The notes under the pieces are model-generated. The model ran no database searches, was not told the origin of the DNA, and saw only the letters and a list, made by a program, of their open reading frames with translations. From the NCBI GenBank assembly GCA_900539345.1, contig UQBS01000002.1:15723-79722 (forward strand): a DNA stretch of 64,000 nucleotides, in the 5' to 3' direction. Positions within the stretch are counted from its first letter, which is position 1. Each line of letters begins with the position of its first letter. The position numbers and the translations under genes are program-made. The stretch is from an uncultured Coriobacteriaceae bacterium. Lineage in GTDB: Bacteria; Actinomycetota; Coriobacteriia; Coriobacteriales; UMGS124. Below are positions 17,420 to 47,516 of this stretch, in pieces.

Positions 17420-17619
17420 TGATTCGCCACTTATACGAGAACGCTGAGGTCCTCTCCGTCACCGGTGAGGTCATCCCCCGTCTGTACGCATCCGGCAACA
17501 ACTCCGGCATCGGCGGCCCGGGCCTCTTCTACAACGGCGCCGGCGGAACCCTGGGCCCTGGCTTCACCTTTGCCTACATCGCAGGCATGAACGCCGCGCA
17601 GCTGACTCCCTGGGAGTAA
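17420..17619 (+). pseudogene. 3'-terminal remnant of an FAD-dependent (fumarate reductase/flavocytochrome c family) reductase gene
   Basis: The translation ...ENAEVLSVTGEVIPRLYASGNNSGIGGPGLFYNGAGGTLGPGFTFAYIAGMNAA matches only the last ~65 residues of this family (compare the C-terminus of the 20741-22552 product, [14 protein letters not shown]...GGNSF...FGRIAG). No upstream domains are present; the toxin-antitoxin pair lies where they should be. Confidence 0.65.
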
Positions 17620-17745
17620 GACAGGCTGTAAACCCCTCTTTGGGCGCTTCTCCTTCGGGAGGGGCGCCTTTTCTCGTTGTTGGATTGTTTCTGGTGTGTT
17701 AACCTGCTTAAATGCTCATCCGACGAGAAAAAGAGGGGGCTCGCT

Positions 17746-24610: not shown

Positions 24611-24865
24611 ATGTGCACCAACGGCATCAACACCACCCAGTTTGAGCAGCTCATCGACCAGATCGATGACTACGTGGCCCTCCAGGTGCGCCACACCCAC
24701 AAGCTTGCCCATGCCGCCGACAACGCCGGCTACGAGAACTGCCACCTGAAGCTGCATGCCGCCTCCGACATGCTCGCCGAGGTGCGCAACCTGCTCGACG
24801 AGGCCAAGTTTGCGCTGGAGGATGACGTCAACTCCGTTTCTGCCGTTGACGTCCATGCAGTGTAA
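24611..24865 (+). CDS. hypothetical protein (84 aa, helical/acidic)
   Basis: ATG at 24611 after GAAAGGA. Divergent from the LuxR regulator gene. No recognisable family. Confidence 0.4.
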   Translation: MCTNGINTTQFEQLIDQIDDYVALQVRHTHKLAHAADNAGYENCHLKLHAASDMLAEVRNLLDEAKFALEDDVNSVSAVDVHAV

Positions 24866-24868
24866 GTA

Positions 24869-25104
24869 GCGGAACCTTATGCGCTGCGTTCCCGGGAGGC
24901 TAGAGTACTCCAGTACACGTCGCCTCCCGGCGCCTTGCGCATCAGAACCCGCGTTTTAGTGGGTGGCGGAACCGGATGCGCTGCGTTCCGCGGAGTCTCA
25001 TGTACGTCCAGTAGGCCAAAGGCCCGCACCGCGCACGTCGGCATCGCGCGCCCTGCGCATCAGAACCCGCGTTTTGGTGGGTGGCGGAACCGGATGCGCT
25101 GAGG
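24869..25104. repeat. family A nested-hairpin repeat array, locus 1 (about 2.3 units, inverted relative to loci 2 and 3)
   Basis: Contains GCGGAACC..ATGCGC, GCGCATCAGAACCCGCGTTTT and the 8-bp variable stem CGGGAGGC/GCCTCCCG. This is the reverse complement of the unit seen at 31740-32232 and 38347-38556. Confidence 0.85.
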
Positions 25105-25119
25105 TTTTGCTTGTGTATG

Positions 25120-25157
25120 AAAAAAGCCGTCCGGGCTGGTGCTCGGGCGGCTTTTTT
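25120..25157. terminator. bidirectional intrinsic terminator (3' of the VanZ gene)
   Basis: A-run, stem AGCCGTCCG/CGGGCGGCT, then a T6 run. Confidence 0.7.
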
Positions 25158-25162
25158 GTGGC

Positions 25163-25717
25163 TTATGCTGGGATTTTCTTTGCTTTGTGCCGGGTGGTCA
25201 GGGTGTGGACGAGCAGGGTGAGCGCGACTCCGGTGGCAGCGCCGCAGCAGTCAAGTAGGACGTCGCTCACCTGCCCCGAGCGCCCCTCGACGAAGAGCTG
25301 GATGGTCTCGTCGCAGCTTGGCACGCCCACGAGCAGCGCGGCGCACAGCACGACGGCACCCGTGCAATGAGGCGAGCGGTGGGGCGTGAACGCCTGCATG
25401 CCGATGAGTCCCAGCACGAGGTACTCGCTGAAATGGGCGCACTTGCGCACGATGTGGTCGGTCAGCCACTCATAGGGCAGCCCCACGCCGGCCAGGCAGC
25501 CCTGCAGGAACTCGAGCACGCCTCCACTGAGAGCGCCTGAGGTGCTGGCGGGCTCCAACGAGTTTCCCCAGATGAAGCACACCATGAGGCAAAACACGGC
25601 GATCCAAGGCCAGCGTAGGTGCCCCTTGAGACCACGGTTCGTTTCGAGCGTTCCCGTCGTGTTTTGCTTGTCTGTCACGTGCTTCCCCTTTGCCTTGCTG
25701 CGGTCACAATTCTCCAC
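25163..25717 (-). CDS. VanZ family membrane protein
   Basis: Four TM segments with the VanZ-like signature (D...RK.AHF.EY..LG) and C-terminal SD...D..GA..G. Confidence 0.75.
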   Translation of the reverse strand: MENCDRSKAKGKHVTDKQNTTGTLETNRGLKGHLRWPWIAVFCLMVCFIWGNSLEPASTSGALSGGVLEFLQGCLAGVGLPYEWLTDHIVRKCAHFSEYLVLGLIGMQAFTPHRSPHCTGAVVLCAALLVGVPSCDETIQLFVEGRSGQVSDVLLDCCGAATGVALTLLVHTLTTRHKAKKIPA

Positions 25718-25804: not shown

Positions 25805-25997
25805 CGTATCTGTTACGGGGCGGGGTGAGATTCCCCACCGGCGGTATGGGTCTGGCCGACCCGAGCCCGCGAGCCAGCAATAGCTGGCCGACCTGGTGAG
25901 ATTCCAGGGCCGACGGTATAGTCCGGATGATAGTAACACCTGGTCGTGCCACACATCGCTACCAGAGACCCGCTGCAGCCGTGCGCGGGTCTTTTTG
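25805..25997 (+). promoter_or_regulatory. FMN riboswitch (RFN element) with terminator expression platform
   Basis: Conserved RFN cores GGGGCGGGGTGAGATTCCCCACCGGCGGTA, AGCCCGCGAGC, GGTGAGATTCCAG, GCCGACGGTATAGTCCGGATGA. P1 is TGTTAC/GTAACA. Followed by hairpin AGACCCGC/GCGGGTCT plus T5 at 25966-25996. Confidence 0.9.
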
Positions 25998-26083
25998 TTT
26001 GTAGGAGGCCAGGGGGGCTTCCGGCAAAAAGTGCAGCCCGCGCCTTCACGCCCGCCCAAGGCGGGTAGAAAGGCTGGTGTACC

Positions 26084-26680
26084 ATGGCCGCATCTAACGC
26101 AAGCACCGAGAAGTCCGGAGTCAACAAGGCCAAGCGCAGCCACTGGAGCGTGCGCGAGCTCGTGACGCTTGCCATCTTCAGCGCACTGGGCATGGCTTTG
26201 TCGTTCATCCAGATCCCGATTTTCCCGCCTGCGCCCTACCTGCAGTATGACCCGAGCGGCATCGTCACGCTCACCGTCGCCCTCATGTACGGCCCTGCCG
26301 CCGGCATCATGGTGCAGCTCGTGAGCTGGATTCCCAAGCTCATCATGTCCCCGCTGGGTTCGCTGCTCACCTTTGTCGCCATGATCGGTGCCGTGCTCAT
26401 CGTGGGCCTCATCTACAAGAAGTTCCACAACCTGAAGGGCGCTATCGTGGCCATCGTCGTGGGCTCCGTGGTCTTCACTGCCATTGCCATCGCCATGAAC
26501 TTCGTCATCACCCCCATCTACACGCCTGGCGTTACCGTTGAGGCGGTCGCGAGCATGGTGGTGCCGATCCTTCTTCCCTTCAACATCATCAAGTGCGTCA
26601 TCAACGGCGTTGTCACTGGCCTTCTCTACAAGCCGGTTTCCAACCTTGTGAAGATGCGCGACAGCCGCGCCCACGCATAA
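26084..26680 (+). CDS. ribU: ECF transporter S component, riboflavin-specific by riboswitch context
   Basis: About 200 aa and 6 TM, typical of an ECF S-component, lying directly downstream of the FMN riboswitch. Confidence 0.8.
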   Translation: MAASNASTEKSGVNKAKRSHWSVRELVTLAIFSALGMALSFIQIPIFPPAPYLQYDPSGIVTLTVALMYGPAAGIMVQLVSWIPKLIMSPLGSLLTFVAMIGAVLIVGLIYKKFHNLKGAIVAIVVGSVVFTAIAIAMNFVITPIYTPGVTVEAVASMVVPILLPFNIIKCVINGVVTGLLYKPVSNLVKMRDSRAHA

Positions 26681-30146: not shown

Positions 30147-30446
30147 GTCTCCCTCTCCTTGCCTCCCGGCTTTCCCAGCCGGGAGGCGTCCCAGAGAGAT
30201 GATGGCAAGCGACCTGGTCAGCCTCCCTCTCCTTGGCCCTGCGACCCTCCCCGGTCGCAGGGCCGTCCCAAAAGAGATTCTGACCATGCGTACCGAGTGT
30301 GCCTCCCTCTCCTTGGGAGCCCGCATCCCCATGTGGGCTCCCGTCCCATTGCCTCCCTCTCCTTGGGAGCCTGCACTCCCATGCAGGCTCCCGTCCCATT
30401 GCCTCCCTCTCCTTGGGCCCCGGTCGCATGGCTGGGGCCCGTCCCT
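30147..30446. repeat. family B array: five modules of [G(C/T)CTCCCTCTCCTTG] + [10-11-bp variable hairpin] + [CGTCCC]
   Basis: Modules start at 30147, 30221, 30301, 30351 and 30401. The last three are exactly 50 nt apart. Hairpin arms differ between units but stay complementary. Four of five loops contain TCCC. Confidence 0.9.
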
Positions 30447-30545: not shown

Positions 30546-31652
30546 TTAGAGCAGCTTGCCTCCGTCGAGGTTCCTAAAGGTGCGAATCGCCCAGCGCCTG
30601 CGCTTTGTGTTAGGCGGGAACACGGCGTTCACAAGGGGCATGCCCACCTTGAATGCAAAGAAGACGACGAGGCGATGGCGCAGGTCTGCCAGGTTGTGGT
30701 GGGAGTCCTCGAGCATCTGTGCGAGCTTCTTGCGGTAGGGGCAGCGGCGGGCGTATTGCCACCAGGCTTCGGCGAAGTCCACTTTGGGATAGAGCCAGGG
30801 GCGGTTGTCGGGGCCCGCGTAGTGCACGATCTTTGGGGCACGACGGGCCTGTGCGTATGCGCCGCGCATCTCTGGGGGCGCGCAAGGAATGATGTGGCCG
30901 CAGCGCAGTCCCTGCCAGTCGAACAGGGTGTTCCATGCCATGTCGAGCCGTACGAAGTCGCCGCTTGCAAGGTAGTTGAGAACGTCCTGGTCGAGCCACT
31001 GCCAATGGCGCACGGTGGCCAGGGCGATGCATTTGCCGGTGGGGGCGCTGCGGCGGAACTCCGCCAGGTTGAGCACGAGCACGCCTGCCTGGAAGTAGGT
31101 ATACGGGTCCTCGAGACCTACGTCGTTCTTGAGATAGTCGTAAATGGCCTCGTCGTAGCCGCCTGCCATGCCGGCGGTGTCGGCATCGAGCGTGGCTGCA
31201 AGGAGATAGCCATTGAGGTCCACGTCGTAGAGCTTGGCGATGTCGTCGAGCACCACGAGGTCGCAGTCGATATAGGCAGCCTTGTCCACGCCGGGCAGAA
31301 GCTCGGGGGCGAGCAGGCGGTAATACGTCTCACAGGCAAAGTGGCCGTGGCAGGGGAGCGTGGCGTTTCCTGCAGCGGCCATGGCATCAAGGAAGCCCAC
31401 GCGTACGTTGGGTTTGCATGAGGCCTGCCAATGCAGGAGTTCCATGTTTGCGGGGGAGATGTCGCTTGTGAGCACAATGATGTCGTACTCACGCTGCGGG
31501 TCGGAGTTCTCAAGTATCGACTGCAGCGTGACCGACATGTACGGCACGAACTTCTCGTTGCAAGCGAGGAGCACGACCACATCGTTCATGGGTTGGCCGA
31601 GCTCGGCGGCATTCTTGCACAGGCCGATCGGCTGATTCGTCAAGGCATCCAT
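30546..31652 (-). CDS. glycosyltransferase family 8 (retaining, LPS glucosyl/galactosyltransferase-like)
   Basis: GT8 pattern: N-terminal VVLLACNEKFVPYMSVTLQSILENS, DxD (IDCDLVV), later HYAG..KPW. Start is uncertain (GTG 31709, ATG 31652 or ATG 31589); the 31709 extension is built from repeat-derived sequence. Confidence 0.8.
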   Translation of the reverse strand: MDALTNQPIGLCKNAAELGQPMNDVVVLLACNEKFVPYMSVTLQSILENSDPQREYDIIVLTSDISPANMELLHWQASCKPNVRVGFLDAMAAAGNATLPCHGHFACETYYRLLAPELLPGVDKAAYIDCDLVVLDDIAKLYDVDLNGYLLAATLDADTAGMAGGYDEAIYDYLKNDVGLEDPYTYFQAGVLVLNLAEFRRSAPTGKCIALATVRHWQWLDQDVLNYLASGDFVRLDMAWNTLFDWQGLRCGHIIPCAPPEMRGAYAQARRAPKIVHYAGPDNRPWLYPKVDFAEAWWQYARRCPYRKKLAQMLEDSHHNLADLRHRLVVFFAFKVGMPLVNAVFPPNTKRRRWAIRTFRNLDGGKLL

Positions 31653-31739
31653 AGGGGAATTGTACACGCCCACTGCACATTTCGCCAAGAGAACCCGCCT
31701 TCTGACCACAAACCCACTCCACCGGTCCTACGAGAACAC

Positions 31740-32232
31740 GACAGGCGAGGCCCCGCCCCACTAAAACGCGGGTTCTGATGCACAAGGCGCACGGGGCCGC
31801 TGTGCGCCTTGCGGGCCCTTGGCCTACTAGACGTACACCAAAGGTGCGCACCGCGCGTGAGGTCCCGCGGAACGCGGCGCATCAGGTTCCGCCCTTTAAA
31901 ACGCAGGTTCTGATGCGCAAGGCGCCGGGAGGCGATGTGTACTAGATGTACACCAAAGGTGCGCACCGCGCGTGAGCCTCCCGGCACGGAGTGCCCTTCG
32001 CGACGAGTCCCGTGGAGAACGCAGCGCATCAGGTTCCGCCCTTTAAAACGCAGGTTCTCACGCGCAAGGCGCACGAAGCCGATGTGTACTTGGAGTACAT
32101 GAGGCTTCGTGGAACGCGGCGCATCAGGTTCCGCCCGTACAAACGCGGGTTCTCGTCCGCAAGGCGCACGGGGCCGATGCGTACTAGATGTACGTGAGGT
32201 CCCGTGGAACGCGGCGGACGAGGTTCCGCAAC
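31740..32232. repeat. family A nested-hairpin repeat array, locus 2 (about 4.5 tandem units)
   Basis: Units are AAAACGC(R)GGTTCTGATGCGCAAGGCGC-[8 nt]-GATGYGTAC...GTACRTGA-[complementary 8 nt]-GGAACGCGGCGCATCAGGTTCCGCC. It fills the whole gap between the transglutaminase-like gene and the GT8 gene. Confidence 0.9.
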
Positions 32233-32235
32233 TCG

Positions 32236-33741
32236 TTAGCTGGCGCGGTAGCCGGTATCGAGGGTGTAGGAGAGTGAAGTCGCCGGCAGCAACCAGCCGT
32301 TGGACGAAAGCGAGGCGTCGATGAGGCACTGCCTGCCGTCGAGGCTCGTGAGGAACACAAGGCCGTGGTCGCCCCAGTTGCCGCTCTGGCGCAGCACCAG
32401 GCAGGGTTCGGCGATGGCGTCGGCGTAGCCGTAGTAGCGCATGATGTACTGGATGGCCGCCGCGAACTCGTAGCAGTTGGCCGTCATGTTGGTGAAGCAC
32501 TGCTTGGCGTAGGTGATGCGCCAGTCGCCCTCAACGTCCCAAGGACGCTGGTTCTGGTCGTTCTCGACGTAGTCAATCCATGAGATGTGCAGGTAGGTGT
32601 AGTAAGCGTTGTCACCGGCATCCAGGCCGTCCTGCGCCTGGCTGTCGCAGTAGTTCTTCACCAGCTGGTCGAGCTCGGCGTCGCCCGTGGTGAAGTAGCC
32701 GGTGGGCGACCAGGGGTCCTCGACGCCGCCCGAGTTGTAGGCTGCGTCCTTGTTGAAAGACGTGGTCGAGTAGCTCCACACGTCTCCCTGGGCGATGGTC
32801 GAGACATCATCCACGTCGTGGGGAGTCTGGTCGTGCGAGTCGGTTGCGGTCTGCTGTGTGGCAGACGTCGCATCGGTCGTGCCGGTGTCGGTGCTCGTGC
32901 CTGCAGCAGGAGTGTCGCTCGGTGTCGCGCCGGCGCTTGTGCCTGCGGACGTGGTGTCAGTCGTTGAGGAGGTGGCAGGGGCGCTGTCCTGCGAGCTTTC
33001 TGCTTGCACGTAGCCCTTATTGGCATTGCCGGCCACGCAACTGCCCACGAGGGCAATGATGACAAGCAGGGCCACGGCACCTACGGCTGCTACCGGGTAG
33101 ATGGGGTTTGACTGCATGAGCTCGACCATGCGCGCGAGTGGTTCAGGCAGCGCGGGGATCGCGGCTGATGCATCATGGGCTGCATGGGTGGCGACATACT
33201 CCTGGCTCGAGTGCGTGCGGGCGGTGCCATGCGCGTCTTGCGCGTATCGGGTGCCTTCGCGCTGTGATTGGCTGGAATGGTCGTCTGTAGCATACGCAGA
33301 ACGATAGCTGCCCTGACCATAGTCGTCGTAACGGGTGTCACGGCGGGCTTCATGGCCCTCTTGGGCATACCCGCCGCGCCAAGAGGCATCGCCTTGGTCA
33401 TATCCGGTTTGCTGGGCGTAATACGGCTGCTGGGCGTAGCGTGCGCTCGAGCTGGCTCGGTCCGTGCCGTACTCATGGCTCGTGGCACGCGCGCTGTAGC
33501 CGCCCTCGGCATACCTTGCATGGCTGTCGTCGGCATACTGGCGCTGCGTCTTGGGGCGACCAGACGGATAGCAGTCCTGCGTGTTGGGACTGTCGTAACG
33601 CTGGACACGAGGCTGCGTCGCTTCGCTGCGGTCATACCCGGCGCTATATGAATGGCCATAGTCGCGCGAGGAGGTGCGCCCGCCCTGTGTAGGGGAGGCG
33701 TGGCGGTTGGTGTTATCGCTGCGGTAACGCTCGTCTGCCAT
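32236..33741 (-). CDS. membrane-anchored protein with disordered cytoplasmic N-terminus and extracellular transglutaminase-like (Cys-His-Asp) domain
   Basis: N-terminal ~200 aa rich in Y/S/R/Q/D, a single TM (IYPVAAVGAVALLVIIALVGSCVAG), a Thr/Ser/Ala linker, and a C-terminal domain with candidate catalytic residues in NCYEFAAA, GDHGLVF and CLIDAS. Confidence 0.6.
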   Translation of the reverse strand: MADERYRSDNTNRHASPTQGGRTSSRDYGHSYSAGYDRSEATQPRVQRYDSPNTQDCYPSGRPKTQRQYADDSHARYAEGGYSARATSHEYGTDRASSSARYAQQPYYAQQTGYDQGDASWRGGYAQEGHEARRDTRYDDYGQGSYRSAYATDDHSSQSQREGTRYAQDAHGTARTHSSQEYVATHAAHDASAAIPALPEPLARMVELMQSNPIYPVAAVGAVALLVIIALVGSCVAGNANKGYVQAESSQDSAPATSSTTDTTSAGTSAGATPSDTPAAGTSTDTGTTDATSATQQTATDSHDQTPHDVDDVSTIAQGDVWSYSTTSFNKDAAYNSGGVEDPWSPTGYFTTGDAELDQLVKNYCDSQAQDGLDAGDNAYYTYLHISWIDYVENDQNQRPWDVEGDWRITYAKQCFTNMTANCYEFAAAIQYIMRYYGYADAIAEPCLVLRQSGNWGDHGLVFLTSLDGRQCLIDASLSSNGWLLPATSLSYTLDTGYRAS

Positions 33742-38297: not shown

Positions 38298-38346
38298 GTC
38301 TCCCTACTCAGCATTCAGTACCAAATCAAAAGCGGCCCGAGCGCAA

Positions 38347-38556
38347 CGTGGCACATCAGGTTCCGCCTCCCACCAAAAAGCGGGTTCTGATGCGCAAGGC
38401 GCGCAGGGCCGACGTGTACTGGGGTACTCTAGGTCCTGCGGAACGCGGCGCATCAGGTTCCGCCCATACACACGCAGGTTCTGGCCTGCAAGGCGTCGGG
38501 AGGCGATGCGTACTAGATGTACGTGAGCCTCCCGAGAACGCAGCAGGCCAGGTTCT
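38347..38556. repeat. family A nested-hairpin repeat array, locus 3 (about 2.2 units)
   Basis: Same unit and orientation as locus 2. Variable stems are GCAGGGCC/GGTCCTGC and TCGGGAGGC/GCCTCCCGA. Occupies most of the 269-nt gap upstream of dltA. Confidence 0.9.
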
Positions 38557-38566
38557 GCATCACACC

Positions 38567-38794
38567 CTAGTTGTTGTTGATAACGGGAAGGTCGTCGCCG
38601 TAGCAGTTATCCTGCTCGCCCTCGCCTGCGTTGTTGTCCGAGGAAGCGGGCTGCGAGGCAGCGGGCGTGGCGCTCTGCACCGTGGTGCCCTGCTGCTCCT
38701 GCTCGCCGCAACCGGTGAGTGCGAGGGCACCGGCGGCCAGAAGGGCGGCACCGGCAAGCACGACGATGTTCTTGAGAGAGTTGGTGCGGGTCAT
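38567..38794 (-). CDS. small acidic lipoprotein (75 aa)
   Basis: Signal peptide with lipobox LALTGC; GGAGG RBS before the ATG at 38794. The mature part is low-complexity, Q/E/S/N-rich. Confidence 0.6.
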   Translation of the reverse strand: MTRTNSLKNIVVLAGAALLAAGALALTGCGEQEQQGTTVQSATPAASQPASSDNNAGEGEQDNCYGDDLPVINNN

Positions 38795-39122
38795 GTATAC
38801 CTCCAGGGGGAGTGTCGGTAAGAATAGCCAAACATGCAACGCTACATGGTAGCCCATGCGACGGCCCGCCGACTGCACGCGTCGGCCCGCAACAAACTTA
38901 ACAGCTATATTAAATAGGGGGAGGCGCGGGATTTGAATGCGAGTGCCGCCAACAGGTCTTCCCTGAATAATTAATCCCACTTATTCAAACCAATATTTCC
39001 ATTCAAGTTTGAGTTTATGCCGTCGAACCGAAACGATAAGGAAATCTCCACATCCCCGTGTTGAAACACAAATCGCGGGTTTACCATCTGCGCGTTCGAT
39101 ATCGCCTTGAGGAAAAGGAACC

Positions 39123-47322: not shown

Positions 47323-47428
47323 GGGTCCCGGGATTCCCTCCGGCGCAGTTCCGCAGCAAGAGAAAGGGTCTGCAAGGGCCCTTTCTCGCAGCGAGGACTG
47401 TTTGAGCACGGAGGGAATCTTGGGACCC
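47323..47428. repeat. family C long palindromic element, copy 2 (core inverted relative to copy 1)
   Basis: Outer arms GGGTCCCGGGATTCCCTCCG / CGGAGGGAATCTTGGGACCC. Core GTTCCGCAGCAAGAGAAAGGG..GCAAGGGCCCTTTCTCGCAGCGAGGACTGT matches the reverse complement of copy 1's core. Confidence 0.8.
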
Positions 47429-47516
47429 GTGTGCGACGGGCTGGTGGATGGTGCCCGCCTGTTTGAGCACGGAGGGAATCCTGGGACCCGTGTGCGACGG
47501 GTTAGTGGATGGTGCC
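47399..47516. repeat. 61-nt tandem duplication spanning the 3' end of trmO
   Basis: 47399-47455 and 47460-47516 differ at three positions. Copy 2 carries the trmO stop (TTA on the plus strand) where copy 1 has CTG. Confidence 0.85.

Follow-up and report, generated by a model that had tools for sequence, protein, structure and literature searches.

The intergenic hairpin repeats studied here, family A, form an apparently undescribed family of REP/BIME/BOX/SPRITE-like elements. Judging from sequence comparisons, family A is probably a lineage-specific, non-coding interspersed repeat of uncultured human-gut Coriobacteriaceae that spread as selfish DNA and was kept as a terminator-like, or 3'-end-protecting, stem-loop. 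The repeat would have spread as a selfish element and would persist only where it is harmless or useful, namely at gene ends, where its stem-loop may act as a terminator or protect the 3' end of the transcript. Such a scheme of selfish spread followed by usefulness has already been proposed for REP/BIME, BOX and, especially, pneumococcal SPRITE elements.

The window is the whole stretch of DNA that was analysed, 64 kb in length. In it, the 16-mer GCGCATCAGGTTCCGC occurs 15 times with at most 3 mismatches, versus 1.85 occurrences expected (none of 100 shuffles reaches 15), and a two-arm pattern is observed 6 times versus 0 expected. Together, nhmmer and a covariance model delimit exactly 8 full units, to which 3 solo 3'-arm relics must be added: the preliminary description, made from the letters of the window, had fairly put the count at about nine copies. 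Array 1 (24869-25099, minus strand) and array 3 (38333-38558, plus strand) contain two full units each, at 24869-25079 and 38370-38558, and array 2 (31732-32229, plus strand) contains four, at 31758-32229.

Array 2 is the one from which the repeat was originally described, and the sequence at 31740-32232 agrees with that description: the repeat is real and non-random. Its "about 4.5 units" are indeed in tandem, although the count is four head-to-tail units, of 135, 147, 95 and 95 nt, preceded by a degenerate relic. This relic, at the distal (5') end of the array (31732-31756, plus strand), is a decayed solo 3' arm, gagaacacgacaggcgaggccccgc, whose orthologue in locus L069 still reads GAGAACACGGCAGACGAGGTTCCG. 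Unit 2a (31758-31892, plus strand, 135 nt) is a long variant that the covariance model matches partially, at 41 bits; it consists of the 10-nt linker CCCACTAAAAC and a hairpin with the insertions GGGCC-TT-GGCC and GGTGCGCACC. Unit 2b (31893-32039, plus strand, 147 nt, 34 bits) is a second long variant, in which the GGTGCGCACC module is joined by an extra CACGGAGTGCCCTTCGCGACGAGTCCCGTG module; the long variant with a GGTGCGCACC palindrome noticed at the outset is thus present in both units. Unit 2c (32040-32134, plus strand, 91.7 bits) has the canonical length of 95 nt, and is a chimera that combines the 5' arm allele CACGC with the 3' arm allele GCATC. The stop-proximal unit 2d (32135-32229, plus strand, 95 nt, 106.6 bits) is canonical, carries the outer-stem allele CGTCC/GGACG, and folds at -58.2 kcal/mol. 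It is followed, at 32230-32238 on the minus strand, by a spacer of 6 nt (aactcg) and the TAA stop codon of a gene of 501 amino acids (32236-33741, minus strand). Tandem Repeats Finder scores only the last 2.2 units of the array because of the insertions in units 2a and 2b.

The gap between the two flanking genes had been described as wholly filled by the array, but is not quite so: about 23 nt lie between the relic and the start of the longest GT8 open reading frame, and another 6 nt between the last unit and the stop codon. The GT8 assignment is confirmed (E = 1.6e-34), while the gene that had been called transglutaminase-like encodes the 501-aa protein, which is without a Pfam match, so that this label is unconfirmed. 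An open reading frame of 286 amino acids (31640-32500, minus strand) reads through the array, but a coding repeat is rejected because unit lengths of 95, 135 and 147 nt break the frame and because GC content by codon position gives no support to coding.

Array 1 lies on the other strand. Its stop-proximal unit 1b (24869-24962, minus strand, 94 nt, 100.3 bits) is 3 nt from the stop codon (24863-24865) of a plus-strand gene that ends at 24865. Unit 1a (24963-25079, minus strand, 59.5 bits) is a medium variant of about 114 nt with a CGCGGTGCGGGCCTTTGGCC insertion, and the relic at the distal end (25084-25099, minus strand) is the solo 3' arm GCGCATCCGGTTCCGC. This relic sits right behind the VanZ gene's own terminator. 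Array 3 begins, at its distal end, with the relic gcggcccgagcgcaacgtgGCACATCAGGTTCCGC (38333-38366, plus strand), followed by unit 3a (38370-38463, plus strand, 94 nt, 99.4 bits) and the stop-proximal unit 3b (38464-38558, plus strand, 95 nt, 105 bits), which has the outer-stem allele GGCCT/AGGCC and folds at -59.4 kcal/mol. A spacer of 8 nt (atcacacc) and the TAG stop codon of a 137-aa gene (38567-38980, minus strand) occupy positions 38559-38569 of the minus strand.

A unit is composed of a 10- or 13-nt linker rich in A, C and T (CCNNNNAAAM), followed by an imperfect palindrome of about 85 nt. The palindrome has an outer stem of 15 bp with GGTTC in both arms, a 3-bp clamp, GCG/CGC, between invariant AAG and GAA loops, and an inner part in which a hypervariable stem of 9 bp is topped by an apical hairpin with a GTAC core; unit variants of 114 to 167 nt arise from optional insertion modules. 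Writing X for the 3' arm and Y for the 5' arm, the architecture of an array is X-(linker-Y-inner-X)n: it is polar, starts with a decayed solo X, and comprises 1 to 6 head-to-tail units. The three-tier nested hairpin reported earlier is reproduced by folding single units, at -37 to -59 kcal/mol with z-scores from -3 to -7.7. All the middle-stem variants quoted then are found in the sequence, and the outer stem has compensatory variants of its own that had been overlooked, GATGC/GCATC, CGTCC/GGACG and GGCCT/AGGCC. The G-T pairs that had been seen on the unit strand are also there: the outer stem has two invariant G.T pairs and one T.T mismatch. Pairing across unit junctions, also suggested, is possible in principle, but the arms on either side of a linker carry matching alleles in only 7 of 83 cases, versus 63 of 83 for the two arms of a unit. 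The unit hairpin is thus the conserved fold, and the cross-linker hairpin (X-linker-Y) is rejected in that role.

The hairpin structure is under selection. Over the 34 proposed pairs of 135 distinct short units, 96.7% of the cells are paired, a proportion that falls to 30-48% when the partner is slid. Double, compensatory changes affect 17 of the 34 pairs, in 664 cells, and the covariation score is 0.392 versus 0.164 in shuffles, a value reached by 0 of 500 of them. The compensatory changes that had been read from a few copies hold, in other words, once many copies are aligned. The outer stem has at least 12 alleles and the middle stem at least 25, found in many combinations.

A scan of the sequence collection yielded at least 109 blocks of eight kb with the family, from 10 Coriobacteriales/Coriobacteriaceae assemblies among the matches listed. 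The query contained GGTTC, and part of the invariance of this motif is consequently imposed by the search pattern. Applied to the collected loci, nhmmer finds at least 291 matches in at least 146 arrays, of which 144 of 146 have a uniform head-to-tail orientation; the genome-wide family that had been predicted from the window is borne out by these copies in related Coriobacteriaceae metagenome-assembled genomes (MAGs). The genes that flank the arrays are diverse housekeeping genes, including GT8, DltA-like and VanZ genes. Many copies lie at contig ends in the MAG assemblies, which the repeat family fragments. IMG/VR holds 0 matches to the family, and a phage origin is rejected on this count.

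Comparisons between related loci reveal how arrays change. Loci L111 and L012 differ by exactly one linker-Y-inner-X unit behind the solo X, loci L092 and L082 differ by two units, and the dlt locus has, in five species, a conserved relic followed by 2 to 4 differing units. Recombination between the repeated X arms adds whole units to arrays or removes them, and half-units recombine at the apical loop to give chimeras, such as unit 2c of the window and L046:2983-3076. The unit next to the stop codon remains canonical, whereas those farther off diverge, the array ending in a relic without a hairpin: the canonical short type accounts for 82% of stop-proximal units and for 43%, 23% and 17% of the units at ranks 2 to 4, and the median nhmmer score by rank from the stop goes from 78.9 to 69.7 to 57.5. 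This polarity may be due to selection acting on the first hairpin, or to arrays growing at their gene-proximal end. The solo X relic is near-universal. It is not a target-site duplication of the neighbouring unit, being more degenerate and having a different allele in 25 of 32 single-unit arrays. Neighbouring units do not significantly avoid identical outer-stem alleles (17 of 108 observed versus 22.6 expected, p = 0.09).

The placement of the arrays is strict. For 100 of 108 arrays, the conserved 3' arm comes right up against a gene encoded on the other strand, whose stop codon is at a median distance of 7 nt; the exact spacing ranges from 1 to 12 nt, with a peak at 6 nt (29 of 86 arrays). 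Since the last X is a few nucleotides away from this stop codon, the transcript of the gene would read: stop codon, short purine-rich spacer, long GC-rich hairpin, and three to five U. The linkers of 212 of 227 units have a run of at least three A, that is, a U3-5 run right behind the stem on the mRNA strand; it adjoins the stem directly in about half of the linkers, because those end in A. The complementary hairpins, on the mRNA strand, fold at -41 to -53 kcal/mol. On the gene strand, the arrangement in these 100 of 108 arrays resembles an intrinsic terminator in both position and strand. Compared to ordinary terminators, however, the U-run is just 3 to 5 nt long, the stem is far longer, and on the mRNA strand a 3x3 internal loop interrupts it close to the base; a scan of positions 31500-32500 with a strict terminator consensus, which demands 5 or more T in 8 and a loop of 3 to 8, finds none. 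In about half of the cases, the genes on both sides of an array are co-directional and the next start is some 90 nt away, a setting in which efficient termination would need a new promoter. At one locus at least, L077, the gene has retained a canonical terminator of its own, located downstream of the element. The hairpin starts within the ribosome footprint of the stop codon, and might thus also affect translation termination. The repeats are probably tolerated at gene ends, or have been co-opted there as terminators or stabilisers of 3' ends. The spacing of 6 nt, however, is so sharp that targeted insertion seems to fit it better than selection alone.

Within the window, the orientation of arrays follows the gene and not the direction of replication. 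The GC skew of the plus strand is positive from 1 to 36 kb and from 44 to 64 kb, and slightly negative in the 36-48 kb intervals that overlap array 3; the array at 24.9 kb and those at 31.9 and 38.4 kb have opposite orientations, each antisense to the gene it abuts. Set against these orientations, the skew rules out the replication strand as what sets orientation in this window.

The terminator-like placement on one strand conflicts with the wobble-pair evidence for the other. A strand-specific fold antisense to the flanking gene had been proposed in the preliminary description, and the wobble pairs do favour that strand, but they do not establish an antisense RNA as the active form, and the placement of the arrays is terminator-like. 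If the unit strand were nonetheless the functional form, it could be a structured RNA, an array of stable rods parted by A-rich linkers and complementary to the neighbouring gene at its 3' end, or a single-stranded DNA recognised strand-specifically by a mobilising enzyme, as RAYT recognises REP hairpins, or TnpA the ends of IS200/IS605. We find this unlikely. Canonical units fold 4 to 11 kcal/mol better on the unit strand in four of five cases, but the fold of the whole array is equal on both strands (-255.4 versus -256.5 kcal/mol). The outer stem has, on the unit strand, invariant G.U, U.U and G.U positions, which put GGTTC in direct orientation in both arms; the internal loops AAG, GAA and GA/A are invariant and purine-rich on this strand, which the covariance model scores at 34 to 107 bits versus 16 to 24 for the other. 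The wobble counts, which are phylogenetically non-independent, are 100 G.U, 35 G-C and 0 A.C for the column pair 46-62, and, among hypervariable-stem arm pairs with one non-Watson-Crick position, 19 G.U versus 4 A.C; almost all wobbles of this stem are C-to-T changes on the unit strand, and the G.U variants recur at several loci while the A.C variants are singletons. However, no promoter is evident on the unit strand in or beside the units, and the 5' flanks of arrays are unrelated native sequence. The single-stranded DNA variant has further difficulties: orientation tracks the abutting gene and not the strand of replication, which speaks against a bias purely of the lagging strand, as in IS200/IS605, no transposase was found in the window, RAYT included, and a crude screen for HUH motifs in 612 proteins from 0.8 Mb of loci yields 0 candidates.

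Family A could also be an ordinary MITE, with arms as terminal inverted repeats, a duplicated TA or YTA target, such as those of TAA and TAG stops, and an IS630- or IS5-like transposase acting in trans; arrays would then come from repeated insertion into the duplicated TA and from unequal crossing-over. Target-site duplications together with terminal inverted repeats had been named in advance as the marks of such an element. The arms do behave as imperfect terminal inverted repeats of about 25 nt, but neither a clean target duplication nor a parent insertion sequence was found. Linkers contain TA in 74% of cases and CTA or TTA in 68%, at a fixed 5-7 nt from the hairpin, and linkers of 13 nt, such as AACTCACTA+AAAC, coincide with the typical terminal flank through the stop-codon triplet. 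The five truly relic-less arrays (L007, L021, L023, L045 and L070) have YTA on both sides in 5 of 5 cases, with the same triplet in 4 of 5. Orthologous sites exist both filled and empty, but no pair displays a clean simple duplication: the empty sites are ghosts with remnants, or too diverged. Moreover, an element that targets TA is expected in both orientations and at TAs outside stop codons, yet 93% of the arrays have one orientation, at stops. Stop-codon usage beside arrays does not differ significantly from the background, which has 47% TAG, 40% TAA and 13% TGA: TGA makes up 6% next to arrays versus 13% (p = 0.12), and an enrichment in TAG and TAA, as a sign of TA targeting, is not significant (p = 0.12 and 0.27). 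The 0.87 Mb of loci contain no autonomous element, every 5' arm having a 3' arm within 160 nt, bar two false positives in coding sequences. A MITE does not require inner-stem variation with complementarity kept, nor does it account for the solo X relic, which the selfish, terminator-like reading does not account for either. On balance, a MITE of the usual kind strikes us as an improbable identity for the family. We would give still less credit to a scheme in which arrays are built by an unrecognised process of orientation-specific insertion just 3' of stop codons, acting on the antisense strand through a single-stranded intermediate, new units being added on the stop side while old ones decay to a solo 3' arm. 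In such a scheme, wobble pairing and the invariant GGTTC, AAG and GAA would mark an RNA or single-stranded DNA intermediate, recognised by a machinery that would be neither RAYT nor a classical MITE transposase. On the gene strand, each unit extends from a stop-like TAG or TAA to the end of the U-run. This is the exact layout of a terminated 3' UTR, and it would also be compatible with units being copied from the 3' ends of transcripts. Least credible of all, and very improbable in our opinion, is a double-stranded array of phased direct GGTTC sites bound by a nucleoid-associated or regulatory protein. The motif is (near-)invariant in both arms, an invariance partly imposed by the collecting pattern, where a perfect palindrome would have GAACC in one of them; its spacing is regular in short units, with sites 21 and 74 bp apart and a period of 95 bp, or about 9 helical turns. 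However, units of 114, 126, 135, 147 and 166 nt break helical phasing, and strong compensatory evolution of stems is unexpected for a duplex binding site.

Returning to the reading of family A as a selfish repeat kept at gene ends, its closest likenesses are with known intergenic repeats. REP and BIME elements, described in Enterobacteria and Pseudomonas and associated with RAYT transposases, are abundant extragenic palindromes found at gene 3' ends, in arrays. Their imperfect hairpin is recognised strand-specifically; they stabilise upstream mRNA and attenuate transcription, and disturb translation termination within about 15 nt of a stop. Family A shares with them the clustering of palindromes in arrays at gene 3' ends. 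However, REPs are 20-40 nt long, carry GTAG on the 5' side, and their orientation alternates from one to the next in a BIME, whereas the units of family A, of 94-167 nt, have CCNNNNAAAM before the hairpin, without GTAG, and are arranged head-to-tail rather than alternating in the 144 of 146 arrays; no RAYT was found in the window or among the 612 proteins of 0.8 Mb. MITEs of the Correia, ERIC and RUP types are long imperfect palindromes of about 100-150 nt that duplicate a TA target and whose transcripts fold, affecting mRNA processing or termination. They occur in both orientations, mostly as single copies with conserved ends, some with a known parent insertion sequence; here, in contrast, orientation is fixed, arrays are tandem and polar, and neither a clear-cut target duplication nor a parent element was found.

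The streptococcal BOX elements, boxA-boxB(n)-boxC, are likewise modular and intergenic, with a tandem module, a strain-variable copy number and a stable RNA fold. Their terminal modules A and C are distinct and pair together, whereas each unit of family A is a self-contained hairpin and the array is bounded by a solo 3' arm and a stop codon. Pneumococcal SPRITE is an interspersed terminator-like repeat, enriched at the 3' ends of coding sequences, that mirrors coding orientation and has been proposed to be co-opted as a terminator; modular tandem arrays are documented for boxB (PMC3049150). Like SPRITE, family A is non-coding and interspersed, and has a long stem followed by a U-rich tract near the 3' ends of coding sequences. 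The two differ in host phylum and are unrelated in sequence: SPRITE forms a duplex of 18 bp that runs into a long U-rich tail, and head-to-tail arrays are not reported for it, whereas family A has a three-tier stem of about 34 bp with a U-run of 3-5 nt, polar arrays with a terminal relic, and hypervariable complementary stems. Family A is thus of the SPRITE or BOX type in kind, being multi-copy, non-coding, intergenic, stably folded, located at the 3' ends of coding sequences and variable in length, but not by homology.

The preliminary description assigned the repeat to no known REP, BIME or MITE family, and the array regions match no Rfam family at the gathering threshold: with permissive filters, the best scores are 14.7-17.4 bits versus gathering scores of 44-91, and a known Rfam RNA family is rejected. 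Literature searches on Coriobacteriaceae or Collinsella repeats, and on intergenic or REP-type hairpins near stop codons, brought up nothing relevant to the family. Three other classes of repeats were discarded. CRISPR arrays do not fit hundreds of loci with no unique spacers, in which units abut via conserved 10- or 13-nt linkers. The arms GCRGGTTCT and AGGTTCYGC leave the integron attC motifs RYYYAAC and GTTRRRY unmatched on either strand, and no cassette open reading frames lie between units. ToxI-like repeats of type III toxin-antitoxin systems do not fit more than 140 arrays flanked by diverse housekeeping genes.

Family A shapes the 3' ends of many genes in common uncultured gut Actinobacteria, and needs to be annotated lest it be mistaken for sRNAs, CRISPR-like arrays or assembly artefacts. 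Because the number and content of units differ between close relatives, it can serve as a marker for strain typing. It is also a good system in which to study site choice by REP-like elements, and to ask whether selection keeps such elements as terminators or only tolerates them; its value lies in the strict placement, at about 6 nt and in a single orientation, in the polarity of arrays, and in the conflict between the strands favoured by placement and by wobble pairs. Finally, the family helps to spot mis-binned contigs: copies are carried by two bins labelled Alistipes and Acutalibacteraceae.

Family A is present in the window (63% G+C) as three tandem arrays. Array 2 lies between a GT8 glycosyltransferase gene (longest ORF, 30546-31709, minus strand), whose preliminary identification is borne out by its Pfam match (E = 1.6e-34), and a gene for a 501-aa protein (32236-33741, minus strand). 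The label 'transglutaminase-like' given to the latter is not confirmed: no Pfam family is matched at E <= 0.001, and only noise at E <= 1. The approximately 4.5 units first reported there are resolved, by an HMM built from short copies and by a covariance model, into four full units on the plus strand, of 135 nt (31758-31892), 147 nt (31893-32039), 95 nt (32040-32134) and 95 nt (32135-32229), preceded by a decayed 3'-arm fragment (31732-31756, plus strand). Six nucleotides (aactcg) separate the last unit from the stop codon of the 501-aa gene. Array 1 (24869-25099, minus strand) consists of two units and a solo 3' arm, array 3 (38333-38558, plus strand) of a relic and two units, and the covariance model, with filters off, finds no further copies in the 64-kb window. 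This repetition far exceeds chance: in the window, a family A 16-mer has 15 occurrences (1.85 expected) and the two-arm pattern has 6 (0 expected). Tandem Repeats Finder picks up no more than the last 2.2 units of array 2, because the first two units carry insertions.

We call S the strand on which the unit was first described, and C its complement. The canonical unit is 95 nt long. Read on S, it begins with a G-poor linker, CCNNNNAAA(A/C). In the outer stem, GCRGG-U-UCUNNNNNGC pairs with GCNNNNNAGG-U-UCYGC (15 pairs, two invariant G.U pairs and one U.U mismatch), so that each arm contains GGUUC. Inside it come an AAG loop that never varies, a GCG/CGC clamp bearing an R bulge and, on the 3' side, an invariant GAA, then a hypervariable stem of 9 bp, an internal loop (GA/A) and, at the apex, a 7-bp hairpin with a GUAC core. 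The folding energy of a single unit is between -37 and -59 kcal/mol on S and between -41 and -53 kcal/mol on C (z-scores of -3 to -7.7). Long units (114-115, 125-127, 134-135, 144-147 and 165-167 nt) carry recurrent insertion modules within or beside the apical region, including GGGCC-TTT-GGCC, a GGTGCGCACC palindrome and a CACGGAG...CCCGTG module. Linker length is bimodal: 10 nt, or 13 nt when an extra NNC is added to the 10-nt form. The 13-nt linker (AACTCACTA+AAAC, for example) is the same as the typical terminal flank, stop-codon triplet included.

Distinct short units, 135 in all, were aligned with MAFFT without fitting to any structure and scored against the fold of one unit. Standard pairs fill 96.7% of the cells, against 83.7% in shuffles and 30-48% when partners are slid; 664 cells are double changes, against 254 in shuffles; and the covariation score is 0.392, against 0.164, a value of 0.392 being reached by none of 500 shuffles. 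Pairs changed on both sides number 17 of 34, against 16.1 in shuffles (96 of 500 reach 17) and 3-6 with slid partners. The compensatory changes noticed in a few stems are thus real, and wider than was noticed, with the caveat that the search pattern accounts for part of the conservation of the arms (GGTTCT, GCARGGCG and GGTTCYGC). The five variable bases of the outer stem have at least 12 complementary alleles (among them GATGC, CGTCC, GGCCT, CACGC, GGCGC and CGGCC), which combine freely with at least 25 alleles of the middle stem. A minority of units are chimeric, their halves carrying different alleles, for example the third full unit of array 2 and L046:2983-3076 among the sampled loci, which suggests that recombination takes place at the apical loop. 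Since arm alleles match within the unit in 63 of 83 cases and across the linker in 7 of 83, the unit hairpin is the maintained fold. Cross-unit pairings do occur in whole-array folding (-255.4 and -256.5 kcal/mol on the two strands, equally stable), but the pairing proposed across unit junctions does not stand as a maintained fold.

Searching one genome per GTDB species with the two-arm pattern yields at least 109 eight-kb blocks, from 10 assemblies among the matches listed. Eight of these 10 come from human gut and bear the label uncultured Coriobacteriales or Coriobacteriaceae; the other two, CAVEWV01 and CAVJGP01, are 'cleanbin' assemblies labelled Acutalibacteraceae bacterium and Alistipes onderdonkii (loci including L005, L008, L016 and L031). 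Their contigs carry family A together with orthologues of window genes at 70-99% identity, and are probably mis-binned or mislabelled. IMG/VR viral contigs give no matches. An nhmmer search of 0.87 Mb of sampled loci detects 291 copies. They form 146 arrays, each with 1-6 units, and in 144 of these all units point the same way. At the two mixed ones, L024:2198-2735 and L017:7164-7402, two opposed arrays meet, with convergent gene ends on either side. The 501-aa gene with the same array recurs in several gut metagenome assemblies (GCA_052302115.1 and others), on contigs where a dltABCD-like operon precedes it.

The arrays are placed at gene ends. Genes were predicted from codon-position GC by a simple caller, with the window as a check. 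On their S-3' side, 108 arrays have a gene no more than 400 nt away; in 100 of them it lies on the opposite strand, and the median distance of its stop codon is 7 nt. Counted exactly, from the final base of the 3' arm, the gap to the stop codon is most often 6 nt (29 of 86 distinct junctions) and otherwise spread over 1-12 nt. Relative to the abutting gene, the far-side neighbour is co-directional at 50 arrays, convergent at 16 and not determined at 34. On the gene strand, every unit starts with a short spacer rich in G, A and T, continues as a long GC-rich hairpin and ends in a U-run: the linker A-run is at least 3 nt long in 212 of 227 units, most commonly 4 nt, and the U-run directly adjoins the stem in about half of the units. 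All three window arrays are antisense to the abutting gene, the one at 24.9 kb being opposite to those at 31.9 and 38.4 kb, while plus-strand GC skew is positive over 1-36 kb and 44-64 kb and slightly negative in the 36-48 kb windows, which overlap array 3. In the window, orientation thus follows the gene and not the replication fork. At about 336 distinct gene ends of the sampled loci (L005-L113), the same crude caller counts 47% TAG, 40% TAA and 13% TGA, an unusually low share of TGA for a high-GC bacterium (63% G+C).

Writing X for the 3' arm and Y for the 5' arm, arrays have the form X-(linker-Y-inner-X)n: 66 of them read XYX, XYXYX, XYXYXYX or XYXYXYXYX, and most others are close variants. 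The solo X, at the end distal from the stop codon, is often degenerate, and its allele differs from that of the adjacent unit in 25 of 32 single-unit arrays, which rules out a duplication by the neighbouring unit; homology upstream of it ends at variable points. It is therefore the relic of an older unit. Arrays are also polar: from rank 1, next to the stop codon, to rank 4, the share of the canonical short type is 82%, 43%, 23% and 17%, and the median nhmmer score 78.9, 69.7, 57.5 and 61.3. Comparison of related loci catches units coming and going: L111 exceeds L012, which keeps only a solo X, by exactly one linker-Y-inner-X unit; L092 has two units more than its orthologue L082; and L093 is empty where L065 carries two units. 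At the dlt locus of five species, the relic is common to all, each has 2-4 different units, and changes in the proximal unit go together with changes in the stop codon and spacer. Window 17587-17645 is orthologous to L077:6309-6401, which holds a relic and one unit; in the window copy, only a short linker/5'-arm-like remnant (CCCAAAGAGGGGTT) stands between the stop codon and the gene's own canonical terminator, which makes it a ghost, or near-empty, site of the family.

The family, its fold and covariation, its placement, polarity and turnover are established by these comparisons. We read family A, with somewhat more confidence than doubt, as a selfish non-autonomous structured repeat that survives only at gene 3' ends, in the orientation giving the transcript a terminator-like or 3'-protecting hairpin, and whose arrays grow and shrink by recombination between X arms. 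The selfish spread, the termination or stabilisation by the predicted C-strand hairpin, and the reason for the polarity are what we infer. Several facts count against this reading: a strict terminator consensus scan of 31500-32500 gives no match, the U-runs are short, the genes on both sides of many arrays run in the same direction with about 90 nt to the next start, and some genes keep their own terminator downstream of the array. In the window, a canonical, bidirectional-looking terminator (AAAAAAGCCGCCCGAGCACCAGCCCGGACGGCTTTTTTT, minus strand, 25125-25165) follows the VanZ gene and stands right beside array 1, at its distal end, so arrays and ordinary terminators do occur together.

Placement argues for action on C, the mRNA strand of the gene, but several structural details argue for S. 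It is on S that the invariant positions read G.U, U.U and G.U; column pair 46-62 is G.U in 100 units, G-C in 35 and A.C in none; and S is the strand on which the conserved internal loops are rich in purines. Among arm pairs of the hypervariable stem with a single non-Watson-Crick position, G.U outnumbers A.C by 19 to 4, counts that are non-independent, six falling in one column; nearly all these changes are C-to-T on S, and G.U variants are found again at several loci while A.C variants are singletons. The plus-strand G-T pairs of the preliminary description agree with this. An element recognised as S-strand RNA or single-stranded DNA is nevertheless an unlikely account. The simplest reconciliation would be that propagation selects the single-stranded S form, and that persistence at a locus depends on C-strand action in mRNA. 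We are equally doubtful of a MITE duplicating a TA/YTA target: YTA flanks all five truly relic-less arrays and TA lies within 74% of linkers, but neither a clean target duplication nor a parent insertion sequence was found, and the orientation bias would require strong selection. No transposase is found in the window, nor any HUH protein in a crude screen of the sampled loci, which is weak negative evidence. That the arrays are phased GGTTC sites for a binding protein seems very improbable.

REPs contain GTAG, alternate in orientation and are about one-third the size of a family A unit; family A units are three times as large, lack GTAG and run head-to-tail. In function, the closest analogue is the pneumococcal SPRITE, an interspersed repeat that resembles a terminator and is concentrated at CDS 3' ends; in architecture, the closest are BIME-2 arrays of REPs and BOX, with its tandem, strain-variable boxB modules (PMC3049150). 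Family A has no sequence similarity to SPRITE, BOX or REP/BIME, and lacks the A/C-type terminal modules of BOX. Differing in sequence, size, GTAG, orientation and terminal modules, it belongs to none of them and is a new family of the same kind. Searches of Rfam, and of the literature on Coriobacteriaceae/Collinsella repeats and on intergenic or REP-type hairpins near stop codons, give no earlier description, in keeping with the initial failure to assign a known family. Its oddities worth following up are the 6-nt stop-codon spacing in one orientation, the polar arrays with a relic at the end, and the discordant signals of the two strands.

The window also holds two tandem repeats unrelated to family A, at 30300-30417 (50-nt unit, 2.4 copies, 92% identity) and 47398-47516 (61-nt unit, 2.0 copies, 94% identity), and an FMN riboswitch (25807-25942, plus strand, 109.9 bits) upstream of a gene for the S-component of an ECF riboflavin-type transporter (26069-26680).
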